Below are positions 10,757 through 55,474 of a stretch of 64,000 bases of DNA, piece by piece. Under the pieces are notes generated by a model, which worked only from the letters and a program-made list of their open reading frames with translations, had not been told where the DNA came from and did not search any database. The DNA is taken from positions 32,001-96,000 of the forward strand of contig CAVOHZ010000004.1 of NCBI GenBank assembly GCA_963695855.1, in the 5' to 3' direction. The translations under genes were made by a program, and so were the position numbers. Within the stretch, counting starts at the first letter, position 1, and the number at the start of each line of letters is the position of its first letter. Source of the DNA: an uncultured Nitrososphaerales archaeon. Lineage in GTDB: Archaea; Thermoproteota; Nitrososphaeria; Nitrososphaerales; Nitrososphaeraceae.

Positions 10757-10774
10757 TTTTTCGGCGCCGAAAAA
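10757..10774. promoter_or_regulatory. Perfect palindrome TTTTTCGGCGCCGAAAAA, copy 1
   Basis: 18-bp palindrome in the divergent intergenic region between cdc48 and ORF 10865; identical core at 20442 and 51439. Confidence 0.8.
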
Positions 10775-18226: not shown

Positions 18227-19654
18227 TCAAGAAATTTTATTGGCTGTTTCTGATAACCATATTCTCTCGAATAAATTAGTATAAATTAGTATTTGTGATT
18301 TATTGTCTGTAGATGTTACATCGTAATCATTTTCACTATTTATATTATTTGATTCTGTAGAAATAATAAATAATAATGTATTATCAACAATAAAAAAAAT
18401 AGCATCAAAATGTATATTTCTCTCAAAGTACTTGATTAGAATATTGTCACTTTTTTCTGAAAATATAATATTACTATCTCTATTTTTTAGCAATGTTCCT
18501 CTATTTTTCAGAACTGGTGCTAGGATCCTAATATTTATTCGATTCTGTTTATTAGATATTATATTTAAAAAGTTAATAAACTCATCCATGTAACTAATCA
18601 GTAAAAGTGATTCCTTCGTAAATAGTACATCAATTTCTCTTTCTGCTTTTTTGAGTATATTTACTGTAGTTTCGAAGGTCTCTTTTTTATCTTTGAAATT
18701 TTTCTTAATTTCTCTTTTATGATCAAAGCCATCAAAATGAGAAAAATCGTATTTACTCAGATTTTTGTGAAAATTGCAGGTATTCTGTAAAATATTTTCA
18801 ATCTCTTCATCGTATAATATACTTTTAATTTTTCCATACCAAAAAATACCTGCTATTATTAACATATCCGCAATTGCATATAAAATATTCCAGAAGGAAT
18901 GTGTTTGTAATATCAATTGCTCGCTTATTTGTGCTGAGTATGTATATCCAAGGTCGGCAACTGTTAGAAATGTTATTCCCAATGTCAATGATAGCCAATG
19001 AAAAATAAGTACATTGTTTTTCTTTATAGTAATGATAATAACAACGGAAGAAACCAATAAGAAAATATCTTCTACATAATAAAGAATATCAGTCAAAAAA
19101 TAAATAGGATCAGTAGTGATACTTATATCTGAAATATATATTAGATTGAAAACAAAGTATAGCGGAACGATAGAAACTGCTACACTGATCAGGAAAATAT
19201 TCATCAATTGTATATTGCCTTCTTTTTTCAAGGAAACAAGATTAGTTAACAAATGATATCCAAGAAATAAATAGGCAGATAAATATCCGATATCGGAAAT
19301 AGATGGATAAGGTACTGAAATTGATAAGACAGATTGTTGATAAGCATATATAAATTCAGCAATAAAGCTGATTAATAAGTATAAAGATATTGCCATAAAT
19401 TTTTTAATTTCATGTCTTTCAAGTACGCCACGAAAAAGCACCATTATTGAAATTACTAGACCAATTCCAAGAATCGATACAGTGGGAAATGAATTATAAC
19501 TTAATGTATTATCCCGGTCAGCAAAGGAGATTATTATATAAACAAATATAATGATAGAAGTTGTAGGAAGTAAAATGCTGGATATGAAATTTCGGAATTC
19601 ACTGCTTGTTTTGGCAAGTAATTTGTCTGTGACTATATTCGTTTTCCTTCCCAT
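18227..19654 (-). CDS. Multi-TM membrane sensor with C-terminal PLD/TrmB-like domain and no kinase domain
   Basis: About 8 TMs incl. 'PYPSISDIGY', 'TVADLGYTYS'; C-terminal 'AEREIDVLF..INIRILAP..FERIWL'; paralog of 49853-51250. Confidence 0.75.
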   Translation of the reverse strand: MGRKTNIVTDKLLAKTSSEFRNFISSILLPTTSIIIFVYIIISFADRDNTLSYNSFPTVSILGIGLVISIMVLFRGVLERHEIKKFMAISLYLLISFIAEFIYAYQQSVLSISVPYPSISDIGYLSAYLFLGYHLLTNLVSLKKEGNIQLMNIFLISVAVSIVPLYFVFNLIYISDISITTDPIYFLTDILYYVEDIFLLVSSVVIIITIKKNNVLIFHWLSLTLGITFLTVADLGYTYSAQISEQLILQTHSFWNILYAIADMLIIAGIFWYGKIKSILYDEEIENILQNTCNFHKNLSKYDFSHFDGFDHKREIKKNFKDKKETFETTVNILKKAEREIDVLFTKESLLLISYMDEFINFLNIISNKQNRINIRILAPVLKNRGTLLKNRDSNIIFSEKSDNILIKYFERNIHFDAIFFIVDNTLLFIISTESNNINSENDYDVTSTDNKSQILIYTNLFERIWLSETANKIS

Positions 19655-20439: not shown

Positions 20440-20461
20440 AATTTTTCGGCGCCGAAAAATT
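20440..20461. promoter_or_regulatory. Perfect palindrome AATTTTTCGGCGCCGAAAAATT, copy 2
   Basis: 22-bp palindrome in a roughly 1-kb intergenic region. Confidence 0.8.
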
Positions 20462-22833: not shown

Positions 22834-23703
22834 ATGACCGAAATTACATTAGAAAAAATTAATGAAGCAATAAAAAATTCAAACGCTAAATGGAAAACCA
22901 GAGACCATCCACTGTTAAGGGCATCTCCCACCGAAAAGAAAAGGTCGCTAGGATTGAGAATAAATGAGAGTCAATTGAAATCACTTAGAGCAAAAGCTGC
23001 CCTAGATATCAAAACAGTTATAGAAGATTTTGGCAGACAGGTAAAAAGATTAAATGAAGTAGATTGGAGAAATAATGAAAATAAAAATTATGTAACTTCA
23101 ATAAAAAATCAAAAAAATTGCGGTTCTTGTGTGGGTTTTGGGGTTACAGCAACTCTAGAATCTATGGTACTTTTAGAACAGGGTAAAGAATGTGATCTTT
23201 CAGAGTCTGAATTATTCTTTTGTGGAGGTAAGGATGATGCAAGTTGCTCTAATGGGTGGTGGCCGAGTAGGGCTATACCATATTTGGTCGATAAAGGTCT
23301 ATCACCAGAAGAATGCTTTCCGTATGATGACAATGATATTCCTTGTATCACTTGTCAGGAGCGTGACAATCAGGCAATAAGGATAAGTAAACATGTAGAG
23401 ATAATGAATGTAGAGGATAGAAAAGTATATTTGTCTAGTGTTGGTCCACTTATAGGTGGAATGAGGGTGTTTTCAGACTTTATGTCATATGGTGAAGGAA
23501 TATATTCCCACGTCACTGGAGAAGAAGAAGGAGGACATTGTATACAAATAGTAGGTTTTAGCGATATGGAAAAATGCTGGATATGCAAAAATAGTTGGGG
23601 TCCAAATTGGGGAGAAAATGGATTCTTTAGAATAGAATACAATCAATGTGGACTTGATACTGAATTCCCAATGTGGGGGATAGCTAAAACTCAAATCCAA
23701 TAA
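22834..23703 (+). CDS. Papain-like cysteine protease (C1A) with propeptide, no signal peptide
   Basis: 'NQKNCGSC' (oxyanion Q, catalytic C), 'LSE', 'GGHCIQIVG', 'KNSWG..WGENGFFRI'. Confidence 0.93.
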   Translation: MTEITLEKINEAIKNSNAKWKTRDHPLLRASPTEKKRSLGLRINESQLKSLRAKAALDIKTVIEDFGRQVKRLNEVDWRNNENKNYVTSIKNQKNCGSCVGFGVTATLESMVLLEQGKECDLSESELFFCGGKDDASCSNGWWPSRAIPYLVDKGLSPEECFPYDDNDIPCITCQERDNQAIRISKHVEIMNVEDRKVYLSSVGPLIGGMRVFSDFMSYGEGIYSHVTGEEEGGHCIQIVGFSDMEKCWICKNSWGPNWGENGFFRIEYNQCGLDTEFPMWGIAKTQIQ

Positions 23704-23782
23704 AAAGAATGTATAAAAATTTCTTTTTTTTAAAAAAAATATCGTGAGACAATTATCTGCAAAAAGATAAGATAATAGATAA

Positions 23783-24106
23783 TCAAGATTTAATAATATT
23801 TAAAATAAATTCTTTTTCTTCTTTTATCTCTTTTTCCCATGTCTGTTTATATATAAATTTAATTTTGGTTTTCCCTACCTTTATAGTTCTAAACTTTATA
23901 GATTGAATTGAACTACTGCCCATAGTGGTAGTAGCATCTGTGGATTTTTCGTTTTTATCAGAAATTAATTCTAAAAATTCATTGTCAAATATGTAAGTCC
24001 ATCGATAACCGGCAGTTCCTCTTTTTTCGAGTCGGATATCAAAATCCTGGCCCAGAATTACTGAAAATTCATCTGGACCATGATTTGATACCGATCTGTA
24101 ATTCAT
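23783..24106 (-). CDS. Chagasin-family cysteine protease inhibitor (I42)
   Basis: 'RGTAGYRW' (NPTTGYxW-like), 'MGSS', 'FIYKQTWE' (RPW-like). Confidence 0.88.
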   Translation of the reverse strand: MNYRSVSNHGPDEFSVILGQDFDIRLEKRGTAGYRWTYIFDNEFLELISDKNEKSTDATTTMGSSSIQSIKFRTIKVGKTKIKFIYKQTWEKEIKEEKEFILNIIKS

Positions 24107-24130
24107 GATATTTTCATTTATATCATATCT

Positions 24131-25042
24131 TTATAATATTATATCACTTGCATTACCTATAGTTACAATTGGAGTCTTCATAGTTGTCATAGGATCAAAT
24201 TTACTGAGAATTCCAAAATCTAGATCAGTAAGAGATGCTATCGTTTTTATTTGAACTTGATATGTTTCATATTTGCCATATACAAATTTTAGTCCATCAA
24301 TCAATTTTTTTTGAGTTTGAATATATGCAGTGGCCGAAATATTTCTATCTTTCTTTATGATTGTGACTACTTTCCAAAAATCTGCAGGAATAAGGAAACG
24401 ATCTTTATAGAGTAGGTCATCTTTTCGAAAAACTGGACCAGTGAAAACATTGACTTTAAGATCATAAAGATCGGCATTTTCTAATATATAATCTTCTAAT
24501 TTTAGCCATGTTTTTTGATTAAGATCTTTGTGTTGTGGTGAACAGTTAGTAAAATGAAATGTATCTTCATTTGCATTCACATAATTATCTCCCCAAACAG
24601 GATCCAATCTACGAACCAGATGACCTCTGTCAAGATCATTTTTTGAATAGACTTCTGGTCCATATTGATACTTTTTATCAATTCTAGGATCAAAATACCA
24701 TATGTCTTTTTCTCTATCTAATTTCTTTAACTTTGAACCATCAATATTTACAGCAGTAAAGAACGCAAGACACCTAGATTTACTCATAACTACGGAAAAA
24801 TTGGCATATTTTAGTTCATGATCATCATTTTTTCTCAATTTTACACAATCTACAATCATAGGATCAGATAAATTGGGTAAAGGAATGGTCTCTTCTAAAA
24901 AATCCAAGTTATAGCCTTCGCGATTGTTATAGAGACTAGGATCTTTTTCAATAATATTCATCTGTTCAAATGGAAGATTTCCTGACATTGGATATTTATG
25001 ATTTATAATATTTTTAAATATTCTCATTCCTCTCTTAAACAA
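24131..25042 (-). CDS. DNA/RNA non-specific endonuclease (NucA/EndA, betabeta-alpha-Me)
   Basis: 'LDRGHLVRR', 'TFHFTNCSPQH..LNQKTWLKLE', 'TGPVF', 'IPADFWKV'; no signal peptide; likely start MSGNLPFE. Confidence 0.92.
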   Translation of the reverse strand: MFKRGMRIFKNIINHKYPMSGNLPFEQMNIIEKDPSLYNNREGYNLDFLEETIPLPNLSDPMIVDCVKLRKNDDHELKYANFSVVMSKSRCLAFFTAVNIDGSKLKKLDREKDIWYFDPRIDKKYQYGPEVYSKNDLDRGHLVRRLDPVWGDNYVNANEDTFHFTNCSPQHKDLNQKTWLKLEDYILENADLYDLKVNVFTGPVFRKDDLLYKDRFLIPADFWKVVTIIKKDRNISATAYIQTQKKLIDGLKFVYGKYETYQVQIKTIASLTDLDFGILSKFDPMTTMKTPIVTIGNASDIIL

Positions 25043-25368
25043 ACTGTTGATTATATTTCAACTTCTTTGGTTTTTACATAATTCAGAAAACTAAAATTTT
25101 CATAATAAGAATATTTCGACATATTTTATTTCAAAGATAATTAATAAATATTTAGAGAACAATAAGATCAAGTTATCCTTAAAGAGACCATTATCGATAA
25201 TCTTTTTAATTGTAATTAACCAATAAAACAACTATACAATATTATACATTAAAATGCAGATAATATAATAGATAAGATCCAAATGTGATTAATTAAATTA
25301 TGGACTTATGTAAATATGAAATTCTTGAAATCTAAAAAATTTAAATACAATTGTTTTAAACAACTAAC

Positions 25369-26229
25369 ATGACAATCGGATTATCGTTAAACATTGGATT
25401 AAATAAAGTAGATCCAAATCATTATGAAGGATGGGATGGTCAATTAAGCGCTTGTGAGTTTGATGCAGATGATATGGCTGAAATAGCTAGAGCAGAAGGT
25501 TTTGAGATACAAAAGCTTATTACGACAGATGCAACTGTAAAAAATGTTGTAAAAAATATCACAGATGCTTCTGAAAAGTTAGAATCAGGAGACATATTCC
25601 TTTTAACATATTCAGGTCATGGGGGAAAATTAAAAGATTTAAATAGAGACGAAAAAGATTTTGAGGATGAAACTTGGTGTCTGTATGATAGACAGTTTGT
25701 AGATGATGAGTTAAATGACTGTCTTTCAAAATTCAAAGAGGGTGTACGTATCTTTGTACTATCAGATAGCTGTCATAGTGGTACAGTAATAAGAGAAATT
25801 AATGGAACATTTATACAAGTTAATCCTCAGTATGAAAAAATTGATGTCAGAAATACTAATGTGGATAAGAACGGAGTCAAGTATAGATTTGTTCCTGATG
25901 CCGTACTAAATAGAGTTTATAGTCGTCATAAAGGACTATATGATCAAATCCTTTCCGATAAAAATTTAAAAGAGTCAGAAGATAAAGTTAAAGCCTCAGC
26001 GATTTTGATTTCAGGATGTCAGGATAATCAATTTTCACAAGATGGGACATATAATGGACTTTTTACAGCTAATCTGCTAAATGTTTGGGACGATGGACAA
26101 TTTAAGGATTCATATAAAACCTTTCATAAAAGAATCGTAAGTCAAATGCCATCAGAGCAGACTCCAAATTATTATGTAATTGGTAAACCTAACCTGGATT
26201 TCGAGAAGAAAATTCCCTTTAAAATATAG
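25369..26229 (+). CDS. Metacaspase/caspase-family peptidase C14
   Basis: 'YSGHGG' and 'SDSCHSG' His-Cys dyad, 'DETWCLYD', 'ISGCQDNQFS'. Confidence 0.93.
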   Translation: MTIGLSLNIGLNKVDPNHYEGWDGQLSACEFDADDMAEIARAEGFEIQKLITTDATVKNVVKNITDASEKLESGDIFLLTYSGHGGKLKDLNRDEKDFEDETWCLYDRQFVDDELNDCLSKFKEGVRIFVLSDSCHSGTVIREINGTFIQVNPQYEKIDVRNTNVDKNGVKYRFVPDAVLNRVYSRHKGLYDQILSDKNLKESEDKVKASAILISGCQDNQFSQDGTYNGLFTANLLNVWDDGQFKDSYKTFHKRIVSQMPSEQTPNYYVIGKPNLDFEKKIPFKI

Positions 26230-26358
26230 TAATCGACTGAAATTTTTCAGTTTTTATAATTTTTTTATTTTTTATTTCAAAAATATATGATATTTCTTGA
26301 TAATTAAACATACGCATGACAACAATCTCTTTATACAAGAATTTCAATTGAAAACATA

Positions 26359-27828
26359 TTGGTCCTGAGAACAAAAATATTGTTTGTTTCATCGGTACCA
26401 GAAGATAAAAATTATATCGATGTTGGTCAAGAGAGCGATATAATATCTGAAGTTCTTGGAATAATGAAGCAAGATAGCAAATTTCAGTTTATTCATAAAC
26501 ATGGCATAATCAGGGGAAAATTTCGAGAAATTCTACAAGATTATAAACCAGATATAATTCATTTTTCAGGACACGGAGGAGAAAAAGAAGGTCTTGTATT
26601 TCAAGATAATGAAGAAATTTCAAAGGAGATGTTAAGAGATATTTTTGATGGTTTACATAATGTACAATTAATTTATCTAAATGCATGTTATTCAGCAAAA
26701 CAGACAGATGCAATCAAAAATTTAACTAATGTCAAAAATATTATTGGGATGAATAAATCAATAGCTGATTATATTGCTATTCAATTTTCTACAAATTTTT
26801 ATAAAAATTATAAAAGAATCGAAATGATAAAAGAATCTTTCAGAGACACGTTTAACAATTTTAGACAAGAATATCCAGATATAGTTAATTTACCTGAACT
26901 AGTTAAAATAGATGAAAAAATAGAGATCAACGATTCTTTGGATAATCAAGATGAAATTGATCTCAAGAAAAAAAGTTCAAGAAGATTGGTTCAGAATCGG
27001 CAAATTTCTATAGACCTTTTATCACAAATTGATCAATCAATAAAAATATTTGATGAAAAAGTTGTTAAAAATGAAGTTGAACCAGAAAAGTTCTGGAAAG
27101 GAGAAACTTCTGTTAACCTCTCAAAAATTTTAATTATATTAGATTCATATTCAGAAGAATATGGTCTTTCCGATATTGAATTAAAAATAGTGAGAGGCAA
27201 TTTTAGAACAGCTGAAACCTTATTTCATACACTTACTTTTAAATCGAATTCAACAGAACTTGCAAGTAAAGAAATAATGCAAAGAAAGATGATAAAATGT
27301 TATGAGGAAATTATAAAAGTGTTAAGAAAATTACTTTTTAATTATAAACTTGATTCTATTCAAAAAATTCAACCCCTTTTCCCACAGGATTCTAGCAGGA
27401 ATATGTTATCTGATACATTATACAAGATTCAATCTTTATCTATTTCGTTAAATACTCTAAAGAATAAAATATTACAATCTATCTTAAGAAATGACGATCC
27501 ACTTGTTCAATCTAATTCTAAGGCCGAATATTTTAATATTTTATTTCATTTAAAGATAGAATATAATAATTTTATAAAATTTATGGAAAAAGAATTTGAT
27601 CCGAACATAGTAGAGAGGAATGTGAATGTCACGAACCTATTTTCAAACCTGAATGATAAATTAATCCTCGAACGAATAAATACAATAGGACTCTATGAAA
27701 GTTTAACCAATATTTATGATATTCAAGATGAATTAGGAAAAATTTTTGAAACATGTGTAGTATTTTTGGATAATATTAACAGAAAGATGAAGTCTGGGAT
27801 ATCGAACTATGAACCAGGAAACAGATAA
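26359..27828 (+). CDS. CHAT-domain (caspase HetF-associated) protein with helical C-terminus
   Basis: 'PDIIHFSGHG' and 'YLNACYS' intact dyad, 'IIGM..I.D..AIQFSTNFY'. Confidence 0.88.
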   Translation: MVLRTKILFVSSVPEDKNYIDVGQESDIISEVLGIMKQDSKFQFIHKHGIIRGKFREILQDYKPDIIHFSGHGGEKEGLVFQDNEEISKEMLRDIFDGLHNVQLIYLNACYSAKQTDAIKNLTNVKNIIGMNKSIADYIAIQFSTNFYKNYKRIEMIKESFRDTFNNFRQEYPDIVNLPELVKIDEKIEINDSLDNQDEIDLKKKSSRRLVQNRQISIDLLSQIDQSIKIFDEKVVKNEVEPEKFWKGETSVNLSKILIILDSYSEEYGLSDIELKIVRGNFRTAETLFHTLTFKSNSTELASKEIMQRKMIKCYEEIIKVLRKLLFNYKLDSIQKIQPLFPQDSSRNMLSDTLYKIQSLSISLNTLKNKILQSILRNDDPLVQSNSKAEYFNILFHLKIEYNNFIKFMEKEFDPNIVERNVNVTNLFSNLNDKLILERINTIGLYESLTNIYDIQDELGKIFETCVVFLDNINRKMKSGISNYEPGNR

Positions 27829-29428
27829 TTATATTAAAAAAGGTTCTCAAGATACCCAATCTTTAGAATCAGAAAGGGAGGAATTTAATAAAGAATTATT
27901 AGAGCTTTTGAAAAAGATAGATATTGACCAAAAAGATCCTCTAGTAATTAATCAACTATTTGTAGAAATAACAAAAAAAGTCAATGAAATTTGTGAAGTC
28001 TATTACGAATATGAGGAATATGAGAAGATTCTTTCTTATTATAATGCAGTATATGAGAAATATTTAGTGGCATTAGATTCACTGGAGGATTCAGAGGCAC
28101 AATATGGATATTATCTTCCAATAATAAGAGAATCATTTGAATACTGGAAGACAAGAATCCACTGGCTAAAAAAGGAACATACAAGAAAAACTATCAATAA
28201 TGGGAACCTGTTCTTGATCGAAGGCAAATTTGAGAGTGCTTTATATAACTTTGATCACGCATTGAAATATGATAGAAATAATCAGGAATTATTAAACAAA
28301 AAAGGCATTTCGCTATTTTTTCTTGAAAAATATAATGAATCATTAAAATGTTTTGAGGATGCATCAAGGTTATCAGAAAATCGTATACATATATTATATA
28401 ATATAGCTCTTACAAATGAACAATTAAAAAACATTTCAAAAGCTATTGAATTTTATAATAAGATATTAGAGGTTGACGAAAATAATCCATATGCGATGAC
28501 ATCGTTGGGTATTCTTTACTATGAAGAAGAAAATTATAAACTGGCTAAAGAGTACATCCAAAGGGCTTACCAAATTCAAAAGAATGATTGGAGGATCCCT
28601 CTTGCACTAGGATGTATATTAAGTGAAGGATTTGCAGAATATAATAGTGCAAAGAAATATTTTGAAACAGCCATTATGTTGAATCCCAATTCATCCTTAA
28701 TAAAATTGAATTTGGCAAATGTATTGCTCCTTCTTGGAGAATACAACAAAAGTGTAGAGATTTTGAAGAATGTTTCAATAGGAATGGAAAATGTCGAAGA
28801 CAGGTCAAGAGCAATAATATTGAGAATACTACAAATATGCACCAATTACCTCCTCAAAAAAGAAATATCAAATGATCTAATTGAAGAATTGGTCAAATAT
28901 TGCAATTTAAAAGATTTGAATCTTGTTAGCTGGAATTTTAAGAATCTAAAAAATTATGTTTTGAAAATAAATATGGAGTCGAAAACAAAAGACATATTAT
29001 GTTCTATCCTTTCTATTTCAGAGTTAGATGAAAACAGTAAAAAAATTTATTTAGATAGAATCCTTGCAGATTCAGAGAGTATTTTACTTCAAAAAAATAA
29101 TGTAACAAATGTGGATCAGGTAAAAGAGATTTTATTTATAGATCCGGAACAAATAGAGATATCACAAGACACAGAGCCAAACATAATAGAAAAAGGTTCG
29201 TATAATTGGAGACTTTATGTAAAAGCACCTGAACATATATTGTCTTTATTTGAATCTGTTGAATATATTTTAGATCCTAACTATTCAAAAAATATTCAAA
29301 GTGCATTTTCCAAAGATAATGGATTTGCGATCGAGGGAACTGGAAGATTTAATTCTAATGTTGAGATCAAAATAATGATGAAAGACAAATCAATCATCAA
29401 GAAATATATAAAATTGAAGTTCTCGTAA
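27809..29428 (+). CDS. TPR-repeat protein with C-terminal prokaryotic YEATS-like domain
   Basis: About 6 TPRs; C-terminus 'YNWRLYV...ESVEYILDPNY....SKDNGFAIEGTG' fits the pYEATS pattern; overlaps the CHAT gene by 20 nt. Confidence 0.8.
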   Translation: MNQETDNYIKKGSQDTQSLESEREEFNKELLELLKKIDIDQKDPLVINQLFVEITKKVNEICEVYYEYEEYEKILSYYNAVYEKYLVALDSLEDSEAQYGYYLPIIRESFEYWKTRIHWLKKEHTRKTINNGNLFLIEGKFESALYNFDHALKYDRNNQELLNKKGISLFFLEKYNESLKCFEDASRLSENRIHILYNIALTNEQLKNISKAIEFYNKILEVDENNPYAMTSLGILYYEEENYKLAKEYIQRAYQIQKNDWRIPLALGCILSEGFAEYNSAKKYFETAIMLNPNSSLIKLNLANVLLLLGEYNKSVEILKNVSIGMENVEDRSRAIILRILQICTNYLLKKEISNDLIEELVKYCNLKDLNLVSWNFKNLKNYVLKINMESKTKDILCSILSISELDENSKKIYLDRILADSESILLQKNNVTNVDQVKEILFIDPEQIEISQDTEPNIIEKGSYNWRLYVKAPEHILSLFESVEYILDPNYSKNIQSAFSKDNGFAIEGTGRFNSNVEIKIMMKDKSIIKKYIKLKFS

Positions 29429-29959
29429 AACGATATTTGAAACCATGACTAAAAATAAAAATTTAAATTGATATTTTCAATTCTATTTTTTGAATCAAAT
29501 TAAAAACATTCATTCGTAAATTGTGGATTCAATAAATTTGTCAAACCCTAAATAGAAATTATATTACAGAATTACTTTGATATGACACAATAATTTGAAA
29601 AATAATAATAAAATATTTTTTTAAAATATTTTTTTAATTAATATGTCGTGTCTATTATTATAAAAAAATTCAGGTATTCATCTGTTTCTATACACTGCCT
29701 GAGATACTAGATATGACGAATAGTACTATAATAATAAAAGAACATAAAATAAAAATTGTTTATTTTTAAATCATTATTCGCAATGTAATTAGTATCCTTA
29801 ATATAATTAATATTTAGTTTTATCTGTTTTATAGAAATAATAGTCTTTCAATATATAAATAACGTAAAACTATGAATCTTGTATTACCTTTGATTATTTG
29901 AATTGAGTTATCAAATTATAAAAATGTTAATAATATGTTTGTTTTGAATAAAGTAAAGC

Positions 29960-31048
29960 ATGAGATATAAAAAAATAACTAACTCGAATTTGATAACAGA
30001 TTACAAATGTTTTTGTTCCTACATACCTATTTCGGTACTTGAAAATTTAGCACGTGCAGGAGTAAAAGAAGCGTTACTAAGTATTAATCAAAGTAAAATT
30101 TATCGTGAAAAAAGAGATTTGAAGGATGTAAAAATAGAAAATTTTATGAAAGAATTTACCTCAACAAAAATGGTAGGAAATGCATCAAGAAGTGTCTATG
30201 ACTGTAACAAATGGGAACAGAGAGTATGAAAGCCGGTTAGAAAAGAGAACGGAGGACCCAGTTCAGACGAAACAGTAAATACAGTTTATGATTATGCGGG
30301 AAAAGTTAGAGATTATTTTCTAGAGAAACACAATAATAGAAAATCAATAGATGATGCCAATATGAATCTGTTACTAAATGTCCATTATGGGGAAAAGTAT
30401 CAGAATGCATACTGGGATGGTGATGAAATGACTTTTGGAGATGGAGACGGCGAAATATTTTTGGATTTTGCCAATTCACTAGATGTTATTGCTCATGAAC
30501 TGACACACGGTATAACACAATCGGAAGCCAATCTAGAATATAAAGGTCAATCAGGTGCATTGAATGAACATTTTTCTGATGTATTCGGTACGGTAATAAC
30601 GCAATTTGTTGAGGGACATACAGCAGAAACTGCAGATTGGCTAATAGGCGATGAAATAATGGGTCCTAAACTACGCGGTGAGGCTTTACGGTCTATGATC
30701 GAACCTGGAACTGCATATGATAACAACCTTATGGGAAAGGATCCTCAACCTTCGCATATGAAAGATTATTACAGTGGTGAGGAAGACAATTTTGGTGTTC
30801 ATATTAATAGCGGAATATTGAACAAGACATTCTATCTAGTAGCAAAGGAGATGGAATTAGGTACGAGTACCTCTGCCATCATTTGGTATGATGCATTAGA
30901 AAACCTTTGGCCAACTGCAAAGTTCAATGATGCGGTAAAAGTTATTGTTAGATCGGCACAAACACTGACTGAAAAGAAGAAGGTTCCGAAAGGTTCTGCT
31001 CAAAAAATACGTGCAGCTTTTAGAGAGGTTGGACTTCCCTCTTTATAA
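29960..31048 (+). pseudogene. Protealysin-like M4 metalloprotease interrupted by one in-frame TGA (30227-30229)
   Basis: ORFs 29960-30229 and 30362-31048 share a frame and the gap reads 'KPVRKENGGPSSDETVNTVYDY..RKSIDD'; propeptide 'SYIPISVL', 'NAYWDG', 'AHELTHG', 'GALNEHFSD', 'GVHINSG'. Confidence 0.9.
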
Positions 31049-31137
31049 GATACTAAGACTATACAATGATTTTGATAGTTTTTTATTTCTTGACGATAAC
31101 AAAATATATTTGAAATTTATCTGGATATCATCGATAA

Positions 31138-31460
31138 ATGATAGAAATAGATTTTTCTTTTTCTGGTGGATATGCGAATCTGAGAGGTTCTTTTAAAGGA
31201 AAAATAGAAAATTTACCAGACAACATCACCAGTGAGATAAATAAGATTTTGGAAGAATCTAAAATATTTGATTCAGATTTTGAACCGAAACAACAAAAAA
31301 ATTCATCGTGTCCTCCAGATGTATCTTCATATACGCTTGTCCTAAATAAGAACAGGGAAAAAAAGGAACTATCTTTTAATGACACACAATTCCTAAAGCT
31401 TTACATCCATTAATAGCTCATTTAAGAGAATTCACACTACATAAAAAAAGTTTCCGTTAG
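31138..31460 (+). pseudogene. Emfourin (M4in) protealysin inhibitor with C-terminal frameshift
   Basis: 'SGGYANL', 'PDVSSYTL'; expected C-terminal helix 'PKALHPLIAHLREF' lies in another frame from 31392 to a stop at 31460; directly follows the M4 gene. Confidence 0.75.
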
Positions 31461-49852: not shown

Positions 49853-51250
49853 CTACTCTATATTACATGTGACGACTTTCTCAAGTAACCATATTTTCTC
49901 AAAAGAGCCAACATATGTAAGTATAGTTTCTTCTTTATTAGTATAAACTGCAAAATGTTTCTCTGTATCTTGTGCAGAATCTTTTTTTGTATCCAATACT
50001 ATAGCTTTTCGTAAGTCTACTAGCAATATCATAGCATCTGATGTCAAAGTTTTTCCAAAGTATCTAAGATTGATATTTGAATTTTTAAATATTGATTTCT
50101 CTAAATTATTGTTTGTAATAAAAGCAGATACATGCATCAAAATTCTAACTAGTATTCCCTCATTAGCTTTTTTATTAACAAGATCCAAAACATCTTTTAT
50201 TTCTGGCACTTCCAACCATCTAGGTGCACAGAACAGGATACTTATTTCACTATTTGCATAATTTATCAATTCATAAAGGAGAGTGTAAATTCTTTTTTCA
50301 TCTTCTATATTTTCAATAAATGGTTTTTTTTCGTCTAAAAATTCTTTAAAATTTCCTTTGAGTGAGATTATCTGTCTATTGTATTCATCTGCATTAAATG
50401 TATCATCAAGATCTTTATTTAGTAATTGACTGAGCTTGTAGTACCAAATTAAAGCTGCACTTAGAAACAAATACGAAAATGCATAGACCACATTCCATAG
50501 CCACTCAGTAACCAAAATAAGTTCTTCGCTGATTGTGGACGTATATGTGTATCCAAAATCTGCTAATGTCAGCAATGCCATTGAAATACAGAATAACATC
50601 CAATGATAAACGAAAGGATCTTTTTTTGGTAATTTGTAAATAATAAGAAGTGCAGAAACAAGCAATATTGTATCCAATATATAGTACAAGATATTGATAG
50701 TGAGGTCTAATAACTGAGAACTGAAATCAATTCCACTGATTATCATATGAACGGTCGTTAATACGGGAATTAAAGAAACTACAAAAGATACAAAAATAAT
50801 GGTGCCACGAGAGATAGATTTATTCTTATTAACGACAGTAAAAGATTTATAAATATGATAAATTAGGAAACCGTATCCGATAAAATAAAACAATTCTGCA
50901 ATAGATGGATAAGGAACAGGAATATTCAGCATAAATTGATAGAACATGTATGTAGCTTCCCCCATAAACCAAAAAACTACTCCGATAAAAACAGCTTTGA
51001 ACTTTCTAACCTCCATTTTTTTAATACGAGTAGTCATTAAAAGTACAGATATCCCAGTACATATACCTAAAAAGATTAATGTGACCATACTATTATATTT
51101 ATTAGTTTTTTCTATATCCATCAAGTAGATCATTAAATAGATAAAAAATGTGCTTATAGAAGCAGTCAGTAAAAAACCAGAAAACAGATACTTTAATTCA
51201 TATCTCACTCTGAATAGAACATCTGTTTTTGGACTTTCTGCATTATACAA
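49853..51250 (-). CDS. Multi-TM membrane sensor with C-terminal PLD/TrmB-like domain and no kinase domain
   Basis: 'PYPSIAELFY', 'TLADFGYTYT', C-terminal 'ANSEISILF..VRILM..YTNKEETILTYVGSFEKIW'; paralog of 18227. Confidence 0.78.
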   Translation of the reverse strand: MYNAESPKTDVLFRVRYELKYLFSGFLLTASISTFFIYLMIYLMDIEKTNKYNSMVTLIFLGICTGISVLLMTTRIKKMEVRKFKAVFIGVVFWFMGEATYMFYQFMLNIPVPYPSIAELFYFIGYGFLIYHIYKSFTVVNKNKSISRGTIIFVSFVVSLIPVLTTVHMIISGIDFSSQLLDLTINILYYILDTILLVSALLIIYKLPKKDPFVYHWMLFCISMALLTLADFGYTYTSTISEELILVTEWLWNVVYAFSYLFLSAALIWYYKLSQLLNKDLDDTFNADEYNRQIISLKGNFKEFLDEKKPFIENIEDEKRIYTLLYELINYANSEISILFCAPRWLEVPEIKDVLDLVNKKANEGILVRILMHVSAFITNNNLEKSIFKNSNINLRYFGKTLTSDAMILLVDLRKAIVLDTKKDSAQDTEKHFAVYTNKEETILTYVGSFEKIWLLEKVVTCNIE

Positions 51251-51435: not shown

Positions 51436-51459
51436 AAATTTTTCGGCGCCGAAAAATTT
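51436..51459. promoter_or_regulatory. Perfect palindrome AAATTTTTCGGCGCCGAAAAATTT, copy 3 (candidate parS)
   Basis: 24-bp palindrome about 120 bp downstream of the parB stop; followed by atttgtgcattt x2. Confidence 0.8.
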
Positions 51460-51576
51460 GTGCATTTATTTGTGCATTTTAAAAAAATTACACATCATGA
51501 AGTAAAATAATAGGAAAAATAAACAAAAAATGAAAATAAAAATAATGGTAATGAAAATAATGGAAACGGAAAAAAT

Positions 51577-52440
51577 CTAGATTTTCTTTTTCTCTTTTAG
51601 CAGGATGTCTATCTGACTATGAAGCATGTTTTTGTGCTGCATCAATATCTCATACACGGTCCAGTTATCCTCAACATCTTCAATTATGGAGGCCAGTTTA
51701 TTCATGGCTACTCTCACTGCAATGATAGCCTTATCAAAAGATTTCTGAGTCCTTGCATCGATATCAACTATCTTGGTTGTAAAGTCAAATATTTCTTCAG
51801 GATGCTCTGAGTTTTTCATCTCATCTTTTAACATACGTACCTGTCTTGAAGAAAGCTTTCTCTTTTTAATCAATTCAGCCAATTTTGATTGATGTTCTTC
51901 GTCTTTTATCGGAAGCAATTCCTCTGCAAGACTTGGTTTTATCTCGTTGTTTGAGATTGACTGAATTATAGTATCCGGAAAAGTCAACATCCTTATACGT
52001 TTATCGATATAACTTGCACTTTTACCCAGTTTTGTAGCAAGTTCGGATATTCCACCCCACCCGTAAGTAGATACATAATCTTTGAATGCACGTGCTTCAT
52101 CTATTGGATTTAGATTTTTAGAGTGAATATTTTCCATCAGTGATACTTCGAAAGCATCCTTGTCATCAAGCTCTACAACATGACAGAGAATTTTACGCCA
52201 TCCGAGCATTTTACAAGCATTGTATCTTCTTGTACCTGCAACAATTTCGTATTTTAAATCATCAGTCATCCTTACAATTATAGGTTGAAGAAGACCTTTT
52301 TCCTTTATAGAATAACATAATTCATGTATATCCTCATGTAGATTATTTCTGTAATAGTACTTGAATAGTTTAATCTTTGAGATATCTACATTCTCTAGGA
52401 CTCCAATTACACTATTTGAAGTGGAATGTATTTTTTGCAT
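51577..52440 (-). CDS. parB: ParB/Spo0J family partition protein (CTPase domain plus HTH)
   Basis: Box I 'ELCYSIKEKGLLQPIIVR', Box II 'AGTRRYNA', 'ENIHSKNLNPIDEARA', HTH 'ISELATKLGKSASYIDKRIRML'. Confidence 0.92.
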   Translation of the reverse strand: MQKIHSTSNSVIGVLENVDISKIKLFKYYYRNNLHEDIHELCYSIKEKGLLQPIIVRMTDDLKYEIVAGTRRYNACKMLGWRKILCHVVELDDKDAFEVSLMENIHSKNLNPIDEARAFKDYVSTYGWGGISELATKLGKSASYIDKRIRMLTFPDTIIQSISNNEIKPSLAEELLPIKDEEHQSKLAELIKKRKLSSRQVRMLKDEMKNSEHPEEIFDFTTKIVDIDARTQKSFDKAIIAVRVAMNKLASIIEDVEDNWTVYEILMQHKNMLHSQIDILLKEKKKI

Positions 52441-52516
52441 GTGAAATATTCAGTTACAGACTATATAACCTTGTTGGACCTGTATAACAACTATAAAAAG
52501 AATTACTTTTTATTTT

Positions 52517-53383
52517 CTAGCTATTTGTTTCTAGTTTTTCTATAAGTGCGTAAATCTTGCTTGCAAATGGATGTTCAGGATATAGCAAACTGGTAAGAAA
52601 TTCTTTTTGACTAAACTGGATATCACAATAACATGGTATTTCTGAAATAATATCCAGATCTATGTCACGGGATAATTTTTGCAATGTACTTTGTTGAGTT
52701 TGTTGAGGAGAAAAAGAAGACCCATCTTTTCCCTTATTATCTAATGTTATCAATGGATGATGCTGCTCTGGAGGAATGGTACAGTAACCTGAACCTCTAT
52801 TTAGTAAAAGATAACACATTGTTCCAAATTTAGTAAATGAGCCATAAATCTCACTAGCCATTCTTTTGGTACCATCAACATCAAGGTCACCCATTTTCAA
52901 TGTCAAAAGAACGACGTCTGAAACAGCAAGAGCGTTGATGGACCAATATCTAACTCCTGGACTTGTATCGATGACGATAAAATCAGCATTTTTTTTCATT
53001 ATCAGTTCTTCTCTTAATAGTATAAAGTTTCTAAGGAATTGCATTTGAGAACCTTGTTTAGATATGTTTCCGTCCAGTTTGTAAATTTCTTCCTTATTGG
53101 AGTTTGCCATACTTACAAATAACTTGCCTTTTATATCAGAGGAAATTGTTTTAGTAATATCAACGCAAATGTCATCAACTGATGCAGTACCGAAAAGAAA
53201 ATCGTTTATCCATTTTTTTGGGTCTTTTAAGTCAAAATAGGAACCCAAGCTTGGAGCATAAACATCTAGATCTAAAAGAAATACCCTATATCCTTTCTTT
53301 GCCAATAGTACACTGAGATTGGTTGCTATTGTTGTCTTGCCTGTTCCACCTTTGTAAGAGTGAAAAGCAATGCATCTAGTCAT
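52517..53383 (-). CDS. parA: ParA/MinD family ATPase
   Basis: Deviant Walker A 'KGGTGKTT', 'LDLD', 'IDTSPG'. Confidence 0.88.
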   Translation of the reverse strand: MTRCIAFHSYKGGTGKTTIATNLSVLLAKKGYRVFLLDLDVYAPSLGSYFDLKDPKKWINDFLFGTASVDDICVDITKTISSDIKGKLFVSMANSNKEEIYKLDGNISKQGSQMQFLRNFILLREELIMKKNADFIVIDTSPGVRYWSINALAVSDVVLLTLKMGDLDVDGTKRMASEIYGSFTKFGTMCYLLLNRGSGYCTIPPEQHHPLITLDNKGKDGSSFSPQQTQQSTLQKLSRDIDLDIISEIPCYCDIQFSQKEFLTSLLYPEHPFASKIYALIEKLETNS

Positions 53384-53458: not shown

Positions 53459-53827
53459 TCATACTATTGCTTTTTCGATATGTTTCAAGAGCTCTTCTAT
53501 TGAGATAGGCTTTTGTATAAAGCACTTATGATCCATATTGGGGTATTCCTCTAATAGCCCTTCATAATATGCCTTAAATGAAGTTATGAAACAGACTCTC
53601 AGATTGGTATCTATTTTTTTTAATTCCTGAACTAGTTCAAATCCATTCATTCCCTGCATTCTGATATCTATAAGAGATAAATCGTAAATTCCAGGTTTAA
53701 AATTATTTAAAGCAATTTCAGGATCATTAAAGGTATCAACGTTATAACCACTGTTTTCTAATCCTAACTTGAAGGATAAAGTAGTACCTTGATCATCGTC
53801 AACAATAAGGATCTTCTTTTTTTCCAT
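53459..53827 (-). CDS. Stand-alone response regulator receiver (CheY-like)
   Basis: 'IVDDD', 'LIDIRMQGMNG', 'ITS', 'QKP'. Confidence 0.93.
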   Translation of the reverse strand: MEKKKILIVDDDQGTTLSFKLGLENSGYNVDTFNDPEIALNNFKPGIYDLSLIDIRMQGMNGFELVQELKKIDTNLRVCFITSFKAYYEGLLEEYPNMDHKCFIQKPISIEELLKHIEKAIV

Positions 53828-54004
53828 AATAAAAACTCGTTTACAAAATTTAATAATGATTATATATAAAAATATTTACTACAAAAAAATATAGAATTGT
53901 AACTAGGAAGTTTCAAAGGAATTGGAAACTGGCTGGCTGGCTAACTGAGGATGGAAAAAAGAAACTGGAGATTGCACCAAACGTAGAAAGATGATTAAAG
54001 AAAG

Positions 54005-55474
54005 CTATTTTTCTGTTTTTATAGGTACGGTAAAACTAAATGTCGCACCTTTGTCTTGATTATTCTCTGCCCATATCTTTCCGCCATGTTTTTCTATTAT
54101 ATTTTTGCAAATATATAGTCCCAGCCCTGTTCCTGATTTTGAACCTGTCACAAACTTTGTAAATAGCTTATCTTTTATCTTTGATGGAATACCAGGCCCG
54201 TTATCTGAGAACTTTACAAGGACATCGTTATTTTGTCTCTGTACAGATACAATTACTTGGCCTTCTTCTAAAATCTTTATAGCATTATTGATTATATTTA
54301 AAAAAACTTGGTTTACACGTAATTTGTCCGCAACCAGTCTAACTGACTTTTCTTTACTCTTTAAAACTAAACTAATATTTTTCCCTTTGGTTTGATTTTC
54401 CAACTCCCTTAATAGATCTCTTACAGATTCCATTAAATCAAATTCTTCAAGATTAAGAGTTAAAAGCTCACCATCTATACGAGCCACATCTAAAAGATTA
54501 TCCGTAAGAAACTGAAGTTTTTTAGCATTGCTGACAATTATCCTAAGTAAATCCTCCTTCTTATCAGGATCAAGGTTCTTGTTAGAAAGCATAACTTCGG
54601 CAAGACCTAAAATAGGCTGAATTGGATTTCGTATCTCGTGTGCTGCTTCATTAATAAATTGTCTTTGTGTCTGACTTGTCTCTTTTAATTGCTGGTAGAG
54701 GTCATCTGCTTTTTTATAGATATCCGCCTGTTTCCACAAATTCTCAAATATAGATACATAATATAATACTGTTGACTTGCTATTTGAATACGTAGACAAT
54801 CCCATCGCATCAATAGAATCTTCCGCTGAATCTTTTTGTAATTCAACCGCAAGAGAGAATCTTCTGTCAATTATCAAAATAGTGATGTTGAGGTGCAATG
54901 GTTCTGGTAGATACTGTACGCCTATTGCATAATCATTTTTCAAATTATCAACGGTTGTTTGTAGCTTTTCATCGAAAGGAGTTAGAATTCTAATATTAAC
55001 ATTTTTTGATGGATCCTCTTTTATCTTTTTTATAATTGCAAATCCGTCTGCATGATTTATTCGCCTGTAAAAGGCATTTGCAGAAGAAAAAAGTAATAGA
55101 ATTTCTTGTTCTGCGGATCCAACCAGTTTAATAGCCGTTGCTAGTGCCTCTTGAGGATTCTTGATTACTTCGATATAATGATCTTTTGATTCAATATCTA
55201 TTTCTCTTATTTCGTCATATGACGGTACAACTTTGTTCCAAAAAGGATCTGAAATAATTTCTGTATTTCCTGTAAAACTTGTAATATTTTTTCCATAAAA
55301 ATGGTCAAGTCTTTTGAACATGGTGACACATTGATTTGTATCAAAAAAATACTTCGATCCAGAAATAGATTCTTGAATAATTTCGTTAGGGTCCCTATTT
55401 ATCAGAGATTTGCCACACAGGGAACATTTGAATTCAGTTTTGTTATTTGAAGTATTTATATGATTACTCATCAT
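54005..55474 (-). CDS. Cytoplasmic sensor histidine kinase: TRASH-like, PLD/TrmB-like, HisKA, HATPase domains
   Basis: H-box 'AAHEIRNPIQPI', N-box 'NIINNAIK', 'DNGPGI', 'GTGLGL'; N-terminal 'CSLCGK..YFFDTNQC'. Confidence 0.93.
   Translation of the reverse strand: MMSNHINTSNNKTEFKCSLCGKSLINRDPNEIIQESISGSKYFFDTNQCVTMFKRLDHFYGKNITSFTGNTEIISDPFWNKVVPSYDEIREIDIESKDHYIEVIKNPQEALATAIKLVGSAEQEILLLFSSANAFYRRINHADGFAIIKKIKEDPSKNVNIRILTPFDEKLQTTVDNLKNDYAIGVQYLPEPLHLNITILIIDRRFSLAVELQKDSAEDSIDAMGLSTYSNSKSTVLYYVSIFENLWKQADIYKKADDLYQQLKETSQTQRQFINEAAHEIRNPIQPILGLAEVMLSNKNLDPDKKEDLLRIIVSNAKKLQFLTDNLLDVARIDGELLTLNLEEFDLMESVRDLLRELENQTKGKNISLVLKSKEKSVRLVADKLRVNQVFLNIINNAIKILEEGQVIVSVQRQNNDVLVKFSDNGPGIPSKIKDKLFTKFVTGSKSGTGLGLYICKNIIEKHGGKIWAENNQDKGATFSFTVPIKTEK

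Follow-up and report, generated by a model that had tools for sequence, protein, structure and literature searches.

How archaea segregate and organize their chromosomes is an open question for most of them, and the locus described here raises a narrower form of it: does a bacterial-type ParB protein encoded by an archaeon have a DNA site of its own beside its gene, and what might protein and site do together? The locus lies in a 64,000-nucleotide stretch from an uncultured archaeon of the Nitrososphaerales, a group of soil ammonia oxidizers (contig CAVOHZ010000004.1, positions 32,001 to 96,000), which we call the window and from whose first letter unprefixed positions are counted. In it, a parB gene is followed by an 18-bp perfect palindrome, TTTTTCGGCGCCGAAAAA, that recurs in intergenic DNA of the same genome. 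A sequence-only reading of the window had suggested that the two may be parts of a CTP-clamp ParABS system with a new centromere. The pairing of ParB with the palindrome is strongly supported by the comparisons below, whereas the claim of partition meets obstacles. Judged from sequence, the palindrome is probably the cognate, parS-type site bound by the ParB encoded next to it.

A pattern search placed the exact 18-mer at 10757-10774, 20442-20459 and 51439-51456, with no further match in the window at up to two mismatches. With flanks, the palindrome measures 18 bp at 10757, 22 bp (AA...TT) at 20442 and 24 bp (AAA...TTT) at 51439, which confirms the three copies and the lengths first reported. 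The judgement that such recurrence is far beyond chance also holds: none of 100 dinucleotide-preserving shuffles of the window contained any match, and the genome from which the window comes (G000; 11 contigs, 3.55 Mb, 31% GC, with 29.7% GC in the window contig, close to the 28% that had been estimated) carries 15 copies against 2.9e-5 expected from base composition. All 15 lie outside open reading frames (ORFs) of at least 80 amino acids, in line with the intergenic placement claimed for the three. The signal is that of the full 18-mer, which accounts for 15 of the genome's 19 CGGCGCCG octamers; one near-variant has a single mismatch and nine have two or three. Avoidance of GGCGCC as a restriction site was considered and dropped, the hexamer occurring 68 times in the genome. 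The parB-proximal copy (51439..51456) lies 120 bp past the parB stop codon (51577-51579), the distance originally read off as about 120 bp, and 189–306 bp upstream of the next minus-strand gene. The copy at 20442..20459 stands in 1.6 kb of intergenic DNA from which two genes diverge, one for a 475-aa membrane protein (minus) and the other a cyclase-like plus receiver gene (plus); that at 10757..10774 lies between a CDC48-type ATPase gene (minus) and a 135-aa ORF (plus), again divergent.

The protein beside the site is a member of the ParB family. Its gene (51577..52440, minus strand) encodes 287 residues that Pfam, NCBIfam, PDB and AlphaFold2 (AF2)/Foldseek comparisons resolve into a ParB N-terminal (CTPase-fold) domain, a helix-turn-helix (HTH) and a C-terminal pair of long helices. 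ParB_N (PF02195) and HTH_ParB (PF17762) score 80.4 and 68.8 bits against Pfam cut-offs of 26.3 and 22.6, and TIGR00180 scores 131 bits against 58.45, which establishes family membership. The protein aligns to Thermus Spo0J (PDB 1vz0, E 7e-27) and Noc over residues 35–208, with ~30–35% identity to solved ParB, Noc and Spo0J proteins over ~190 residues. Box I reads LLQPIIVR and Box II AGTRRYNA; G69, R71, R72 and A75 are invariant in 21 homologues, so the GxRR motif (G69-T-R-R72) singled out in the sequence-only reading stands, as does the HTH. The AF2 model has a predicted local distance difference test score (pLDDT) of 85.9, rising above 90 in the HTH, which superposes on the DNA-binding domains of ParB and Noc, and the N-domain and HTH together give Foldseek matches to Noc, ParB, Spo0J and KorB structures. 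For the two C-terminal helices (224–255 and 260–286), Foldseek returned no PDB match. The top-scoring NCBIfam model is that of Noc (TIGR04285), with 160 bits, under its cut-off of 315; the KorB domain (PF08535) reaches 17.7 bits, under 22.3, and the sequence match to KorB has an E value of 1.7e-7.

The evidence that ties protein to palindrome comes from comparison across 61 genomes, namely G000, 24 others of the same genus, 12 from other genera of the family and 24 from other families. The exact 18-mer is present in all 24 other same-genus genomes (1–12 copies each), in 0 of the 12 from other genera of the family and in 1 of the 24 from other families (G054), whereas the reversed pattern, our control, has no match in any of the 61. 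The exact motif thus follows the genus, and its lone occurrence outside, in G054, is itself beside a ParB homologue. We collected 21 in-genus parB loci, defined by ParB orthologues of at least 70% identity, of which 19 can be assessed; the contigs of L028 and L036 end at or before the parB stop. Thirteen loci have the exact 18-mer with its central GGCGCC 18–127 bp past the stop, L025, L026 and L029 have a version with one or two mismatches at the equivalent place, and in L016 the contig end falls inside the motif. The position seen at 51439 is thus kept in 17 of the 19 assessable loci, while the DNA between parB stop and palindrome varies in length and is unconserved.

Assembly gaps may also bear on these counts. 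Two genomes (G008 and G023) have the motif without a full parB orthologue in the assembly and with the linked ATPase gene at a contig end, and a third (G006, 73% complete) has the motif with neither parB orthologue nor ATPase seen. Several metagenome-assembled contigs of the genus start or end in or at the palindrome (G020:C185:2-19, G022:C359:1-18, G013:C58:2-19, G024:C143:26-43 and the end of L016), which suggests that assemblers break there and that adjacency of parB and site is under-counted in fragmented genomes.

Copies away from parB are conserved in their own right. Six of the 15 sites in G000 occupy orthologous positions in G014, G019 and/or G012; the window's 10757 copy has orthologous sites in G014 and G019, and its 20442 copy has one in G014, where the flanks have diverged. 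In an alignment of four species at C6:73706, all 18 palindrome columns are identical against 160 of 346 in the flanks, and the same 18 of 18 is found at window position 10757 (flanks 225/331), at C10:897653 (206/327) and at window position 20442 (243/311). An island of identity amid diverging flanks points to selection on the motif. Just upstream of the C6:73706 palindrome, ~85 bp of intergenic DNA (C6:73556-73640) is unusually conserved in G000, G014, G019 and G012 and could be a small RNA or regulatory element.

Beyond the genus, related sites accompany homologues of this ParB. In G054 the exact 18-mer starts 1 nt past the stop of a homologue with 47–49% identity. TTTTGCGGCGCCGCAAAA starts 7 nt past the parB stop in G039 (50% identity) and TTTCGGTACCGAAA 14 nt past it in G027 (45%), and in G029 (57%), whose genome holds seven further GAC(A/G)(T/C)C-centred copies, the contig ends in TTTTTCGACGTCG beside parB. 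The complete 2.84-Mb genome G025 has its sole TTKCGRYRYCGMAA match ~30 bp past the parB stop; G025, G039 and G054 have one site each, beside parB. A wider scan by ParB alignment, over contigs from one genome per species, gave 80 loci, 55 of them out of genus, the in-genus remainder coming largely from the same genomes as the 21-locus set and so not being independent of it. Of the 55 out-of-genus loci, 13 have a palindrome of TTCG-N4-CGAA type no more than 300 bp past the parB stop, 10 have one within 1 kb upstream of parB (three of them ordered site, response-regulator receiver (REC), parB) and 5–6 have one inside parB. Matches to the loose motif number 31 in 23.5 kb of downstream windows against 42 in the remaining 394 kb of the loci. 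The variants alter both half-sites together, with centres of GGCGCC, GGTACC or GACGTC and arms of TTTTTCG or TTTTGCG, as expected of a site read by a symmetric dimer. Conserved adjacency, exact conservation throughout one genus and symmetric half-site variants beside homologues strongly support the suggestion that this is a new parS-like site.

Two further observations concern out-of-genus loci. In L145, L146, L147 and L154 (also L152 and L153), which encode ParB homologues of 39–43% identity, the parB ORF itself contains a 12–18-bp palindrome of TTCG-N4-CGAA type, at the codons that specify (I/M)-R-R-R-I immediately past the HTH. The synonymous Arg codons differ and nevertheless keep the palindrome (CGA CGT CGA; CGG CGC CGA; CGC CGG CGC); it may be a ParB site or may be a coincidence of CGN codons. 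The G054 copy of ParB and site (L074, G054:C12:166000-177000; 47.5% GC) stands amid phage-tail/baseplate- and PAAR-like genes, as judged from translations alone, which makes some horizontal movement likely and hints that ParB-site modules travel on phage-tail-like elements.

A number of results weigh against a simple pairing of every such ParB with this palindrome. Two in-genus loci, L027 and L030, lack it past parB, and about half of the 55 out-of-genus loci have no palindrome of TTCG-N4-CGAA type within 1 kb. The motif was likewise not found beside parB in G028, G056, G050, G043 and G053, and an inverted-repeat search of the motif-less loci (L027, L030, L033 and L037-L040) gave AT-rich or 6-bp palindromes only, those of L027 and L030 being AT-rich. 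Comparison of the recognition helix (K-R-x-x-L-L) with the type of centre gave no clean rule, KRLSLL occurring with both GACGTC and GGCGCC. Part of the number of 15 copies also arises because a ~555-bp cassette has been duplicated together with its palindrome, as described below.

Within the genus, the palindrome closes a conserved cluster of kinase, receiver, ATPase and ParB genes. Upstream of parB, on the same minus strand, lies the gene for a ParA/MinD-superfamily ATPase of 288 aa (52517..53383; Pfam AAA_31 and CbiA) with a deviant Walker A motif, KGGTGKT (K11-T17). A stand-alone REC (53459..53827, minus; Pfam Response_reg) lies 75 bp upstream of the ATPase gene, and a sensor histidine kinase (54005..55474, minus; NCBIfam histidine-kinase models) heads the cluster. 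The order REC, ATPase, parB is found in 17 of the 21 in-genus loci, three others having no ATPase within 1.5 kb and one being cut. Of the 17 in-genus loci of the wider scan that carry the ATPase, 16 have the kinase upstream, and the contig of the 17th ends inside REC. No other conserved DNA-binding gene was seen in the cluster. Fold matches of the ATPase are to archaeal MinD, Borrelia PF-32, McdA and Soj (model pLDDT 68.7, moderate confidence), its sequence is closer to archaeal MinD than to Soj, and a Protein Atlas search returned generic MinD/ParA labels. The family to which it belongs is present in 34 of the 36 genomes of the archaeal family and, weakly, in 1 of 24 outside, and the cluster ATPase is a genus-specific, parB-linked paralogue within it. 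A complex prediction for two ATPase plus ParB (from own alignments of 13 and 21 rows) scored 0.00, was run without controls and is evidence neither way.

The two-component genes form a side story of their own. Kinase and stand-alone REC (53459-55474; loci L081-L100 and L114) are kept directly upstream of ATPase and parB genus-wide, and ~15 out-of-genus ParB genes have an adjacent REC homologue on the same strand or divergent. In the sections of the literature that our search covered, we found no ParB family coupled to a two-component system. Such a link, if functional, would be a new mode of ParB control.

Bacterial ParB, Noc and KorB suggest by analogy how such a system might act. Each HTH domain of a ParB dimer would read one of the two half-sites (TTTTTCGGC), nucleotide in the N-terminal Box I/II pocket would close the dimer into a clamp, and the closed clamp would leave the palindrome and slide. 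From 1 to 15 chromosomal positions per genome could thereby become ParB-marked, and the marked DNA might then be positioned or segregated by the ATPase under control of the phosphorelay. An ATPase-driven step downstream is likely because the site closes the conserved kinase, receiver, ATPase and ParB cluster. Binding, nucleotide gating, interaction with the ATPase and a role in segregation are all steps that we infer, and for the pairing taken together with clamp-type action we lean towards acceptance with less assurance than for the pairing alone.

Could the palindrome belong to something other than ParB? A perfect intergenic palindrome, often 100–400 bp from gene starts and in some cases adjoining paralogous genes, is also what an operator of another transcription factor would look like, with the proximity of parB being incidental. 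We regard this as very unlikely, given that the site adjoins parB at 17 in-genus loci, that the same adjacency has arisen independently in four or more further genera or families whose genomes contain no other copy or hardly any, that some clades have the site inside parB, and that the cluster has no other conserved DNA-binding gene. Another set of facts would fit a palindrome that marks the end of a small element, mobile or duplicating, or serves as its recombination site, and that spreads with it. Five of the 15 copies (C6:109444; C8:213677, 265582 and 311457; C10:1242525) form the exact left boundary of a ~555-bp repeated cassette, the C10 copy of which is bounded on its far side by a palindrome with one mismatch; palindrome-bearing cassettes also occur in G014, G019 and G012, and the metagenome contigs that end at the motif fit as well. 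The other ten copies, however, have no cassette and unrelated flanks, the six orthologous sites are conserved across species in the motif alone, the parB-adjacent copy is kept across genera without the cassette, and a scan of viral contigs for the 18-mer gave a single unrelated GC-rich contig with the motif within an ORF, so that an element of this kind is, if anything, the more improbable of the two. Least credible of all, in our estimate, is a role in bidirectional transcription termination or as an RNA/DNA hairpin, to which a GC stem flanked by T5 runs on both strands would correspond. Two sites do follow stops closely (that of parB at 120 bp and that of a thioredoxin-like gene, C10:897638, at 15 bp), and symmetric changes would keep a hairpin too. 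Three of the ten non-cassette sites, though, lie between divergent gene starts, where there is nothing to terminate, so termination cannot explain the sites in general; the central GGCGCC would form the loop and is strictly conserved, which a hairpin does not need; 15 copies are few beside the several thousand genes estimated for a 3.55-Mb genome; and sites within the parB ORFs of other clades cannot terminate.

If the palindrome is the ParB site, the harder question is what the pair does. The order parA-parB-site and its stability within the genus speak for partition, and the ATPase does carry the deviant Walker A motif that the sequence-only reading had assigned to a ParA, although identity as a canonical Soj-type ParA is not supported. 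Several findings speak against a partition machine. The ATPase scores under every NCBIfam ParA/MinD/RepA cut-off (best 67.7 bits against 90) and has two unlinked paralogues in the genome (C3:303312 and C10:104413), and its adjacency to parB is restricted to this genus, no out-of-genus ParB having an adjoining ATPase. The LG(R/K)GL ParA-binding motif is absent from the whole ParB, including its N-terminus (MQKIHSTSNSVIGVLENV...). In Box III, E103-N104 is invariant and Q-R is changed to H-S in all 19 in-genus sequences, giving ENIHS(K/R) (ENIHSKN in the window) against ENIQR in out-of-genus homologues. Clustering of sites is mild, with eight same-contig pairs closer than 60 kb against 3.3 under random placement (P 0.025), and P is 0.053 for the ten non-cassette sites. 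Nor are sites seen to cluster near oriC/cdc6 where this can be judged with orc1/cdc6 as proxy for the origin: parB and site in G025 are 964 kb (34% of the 2.84-Mb circle) from its only Cdc6_C gene, and in G000, where orc1/cdc6 lies at C10:1713624, no site on that contig comes closer to it than 471 kb, the parAB contig and others being unplaced. The family-specific ATPase, the missing motif, the altered Box III, the distance from the origin and the orphan ParBs outside the genus are obstacles to the partition claim, and a true chromosome-partition machine is, in our view, possible but doubtful. A Cdc6_C search of five further ParB genomes was set aside, contig numbering not being matchable with certainty, and nothing is concluded from it; its two plausible same-contig cases are 39%-identity homologues without an adjacent site.

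The main rival to partition is a regulator or nucleoid organizer resembling KorB, Noc or VirB, in which palindrome-bound ParB would silence or insulate promoters, including that of its own operon, and the ATPase would be a late, genus-specific addition. ParBs outside the genus are orphans without an ATPase, and at three of their loci (L109, L119 and L123) the site precedes a REC-parB operon by ~100 bp. KorB turns up in both the sequence and the fold comparisons of the protein, and the absence of a ParA-binding motif fits as well. The sites are dispersed and intergenic, with none seen near orc1/cdc6; several lie upstream of paralogous signalling genes (cyclase-like plus REC genes at C2:124279, C4:53245 and C10:337601) or of two membrane-protein paralogues in the window, and five head the repeated small-gene cassette. 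This reading has difficulties of its own, for the in-genus site is at the 3' end of parB rather than at the operon promoter. Partition loci of the P1 and F plasmids have the order parA-parB-centromere, which the in-genus arrangement fits. The ATPase gene is also stably and tightly linked in 17 in-genus loci, and a lone site beside parB, as in G025, G039 and G054, is more in keeping with a centromere or with self-marking than with a regulon; we rate such a regulatory or organizing role as possible but, on balance, unlikely. The alternative in which the Nitrososphaerales have a vertically inherited, chromosomal ParB-parS pair with an undescribed centromere-like palindrome, to which one genus has added an ATPase and kinase/receiver wiring, we put forward tentatively as a complete scenario.

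Like bacterial ParABS (Soj/Spo0J/parS), the locus has a ParB with the N-terminal Box I/II fold and a central HTH, a short perfect palindrome beside or within parB as candidate site in a few to ~15 copies per chromosome, and a deviant-Walker-A ATPase gene directly upstream of parB. Unlike it, the site is TTTTTCGGCGCCGAAAAA rather than the bacterial parS quoted in the sequence-only reading, TGTTNCACGTGAAACA, the ParB lacks LG(R/K)GL and has a Box III altered within the genus, its C-terminal long-helix pair has no PDB match, the ATPase is nearer archaeal MinD in sequence, the sites are not seen close to the origin, the cluster begins with a histidine kinase and receiver, and the host is an archaeon. 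KorB of RK2 is a CTP-dependent ParB-family clamp that regulates transcription, and the likeness lies in a ParB-family HTH protein among the matches and in the OB operators, which, like the palindrome here, are about a dozen AT-flanked, GC-centred palindromes in intergenic or promoter DNA; in contrast, the present system is chromosomal rather than plasmid-borne, its KorB domain scores below the cut-off and no KorA-like partner was seen in it. Noc of Firmicutes, with its NBS sites, provides the top NCBIfam score and the top structural matches, and its palindromic sites are likewise dispersed, but the ParB here has no evident N-terminal amphipathic membrane helix (residues 1–9 are low-confidence in the model) and the copy number is far under the ~70 NBS sites of Noc.

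The nearest archaeal comparisons, as far as the available portions of the sources describe them, are SegAB, AspA-ParB-ParA of pNOB8 and HpaAB of Haloferax, which also combine a ParA-type ATPase with a partner that binds palindromic or short repeated DNA sites. Their site readers are non-ParB proteins, namely AspA and the ribbon-helix-helix-type SegB and HpaB, and the ParB of pNOB8 is an adaptor without a parS-binding HTH (PMC7333895, PMC13722703); in these accounts all the known archaeal systems fit the earlier statement that they use other DNA-binding proteins, whereas the candidate reader at the present locus is a bacterial-type ParB that itself has an HTH. A 2025 survey of the ParB fold, in the parts that bear on Archaea, describes chromosomal ParABS as generally absent from that domain, puts 4.8% of archaeal parB genes near parA and deems archaeal parAB pairs 'likely contamination'; it also defines the LG(R/K)GL motif and holds that nucleotide specificity of the fold is not predictable from sequence or AlphaFold3, and its main text contains neither the word Thaumarchaeota nor Nitrososphaer- (bioRxiv 10.1101/2025.10.10.680097). 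Thaumarchaeal integrative-conjugative elements (ICEs) are described as carrying ParB-like genes with TFIIB (PMC6563490), and Spo0J/COG1475 as enriched in sponge Thaumarchaeota (PMC9289680), in the passages concerned. In the sections of the literature covered by our search, no thaumarchaeal ParB was described as having a parS-type site.

The present data point in the opposite direction to contamination. A canonical-type ParB is conserved across an entire archaeal order and is encoded on long contigs as well as in a complete genome, its candidate cognate site varies symmetrically between genera, and one genus has a stable cluster of kinase, receiver, ATPase, ParB and site. The cluster is chromosomal and archaeal: among the window genes are those for CDC48, CorA, Sir2 and an HtrA-type protein, the window annotation has no conjugation/ICE or virus genes, ParB homologues are labelled by their sources as Nitrososphaeraceae ParB-family proteins, and homologues also lie on contigs longer than 1 Mb and in a closed genome. 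If the pairing is true, archaea own a bacterial-style ParB-parS pair that current surveys deny, and the defined protein, together with its 18-bp probe, opens the question to direct test. Should the fuller proposal prove true as well, it would amount to a signal-gated, ParABS-like machine for the segregation or positioning of archaeal chromosomes.

Several minor observations accompany these results. The genome encodes a second, orphan ParB paralogue (C10:878169-879011; locus L002) with 37% identity and an ENIQR Box III, downstream of a metal ABC-transporter operon; it is of the type widespread across the order, and the palindrome studied here was not found in its 3.3-kb locus, a copy lying 19 kb off at C10:897653. 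The ~555-bp cassette (for example C8:213677-214230; loci L076-L080) has a mean column identity of 78% over its five copies and contains a hairpin with a 12-bp stem (RNA fold z -2.7), a 41-aa hydrophobic ORF that starts 15 bp past the palindrome and, convergent with it, a hydrophobic ORF of 34 aa that ends in CRWC. One possibility is a small toxin-like or membrane-peptide gene pair; an Rfam scan of the five copies gave two sub-threshold chance matches to a mammalian element and nothing credible.

Directly adjoining the parB-proximal palindrome (51457-51480) is a tandem direct repeat of two ~11-bp units, TTTGTGCATTT-like, whose conservation does not extend to G014 and G019, two close relatives. 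The membrane-protein paralogues mentioned above (18227-19654 and 49853-51250, both minus) are multi-pass proteins of 465–475 aa without a Pfam family, and each has a palindrome upstream, at 788 bp and 189–306 bp, respectively. Part of their C-terminal region weakly resembles the N-terminal half of the cluster histidine kinase in some relatives (tblastn, 24–29% identity). Elsewhere in the window, 22834-31410 holds pairs of proteases and protease inhibitors in a possible defence-like set, comprising a papain-type peptidase with a chagasin-type inhibitor, a non-specific endonuclease, a caspase-like peptidase, a CHAT-domain protein, a TPR plus prokaryotic YEATS protein and a thermolysin-type peptidase with emfourin.

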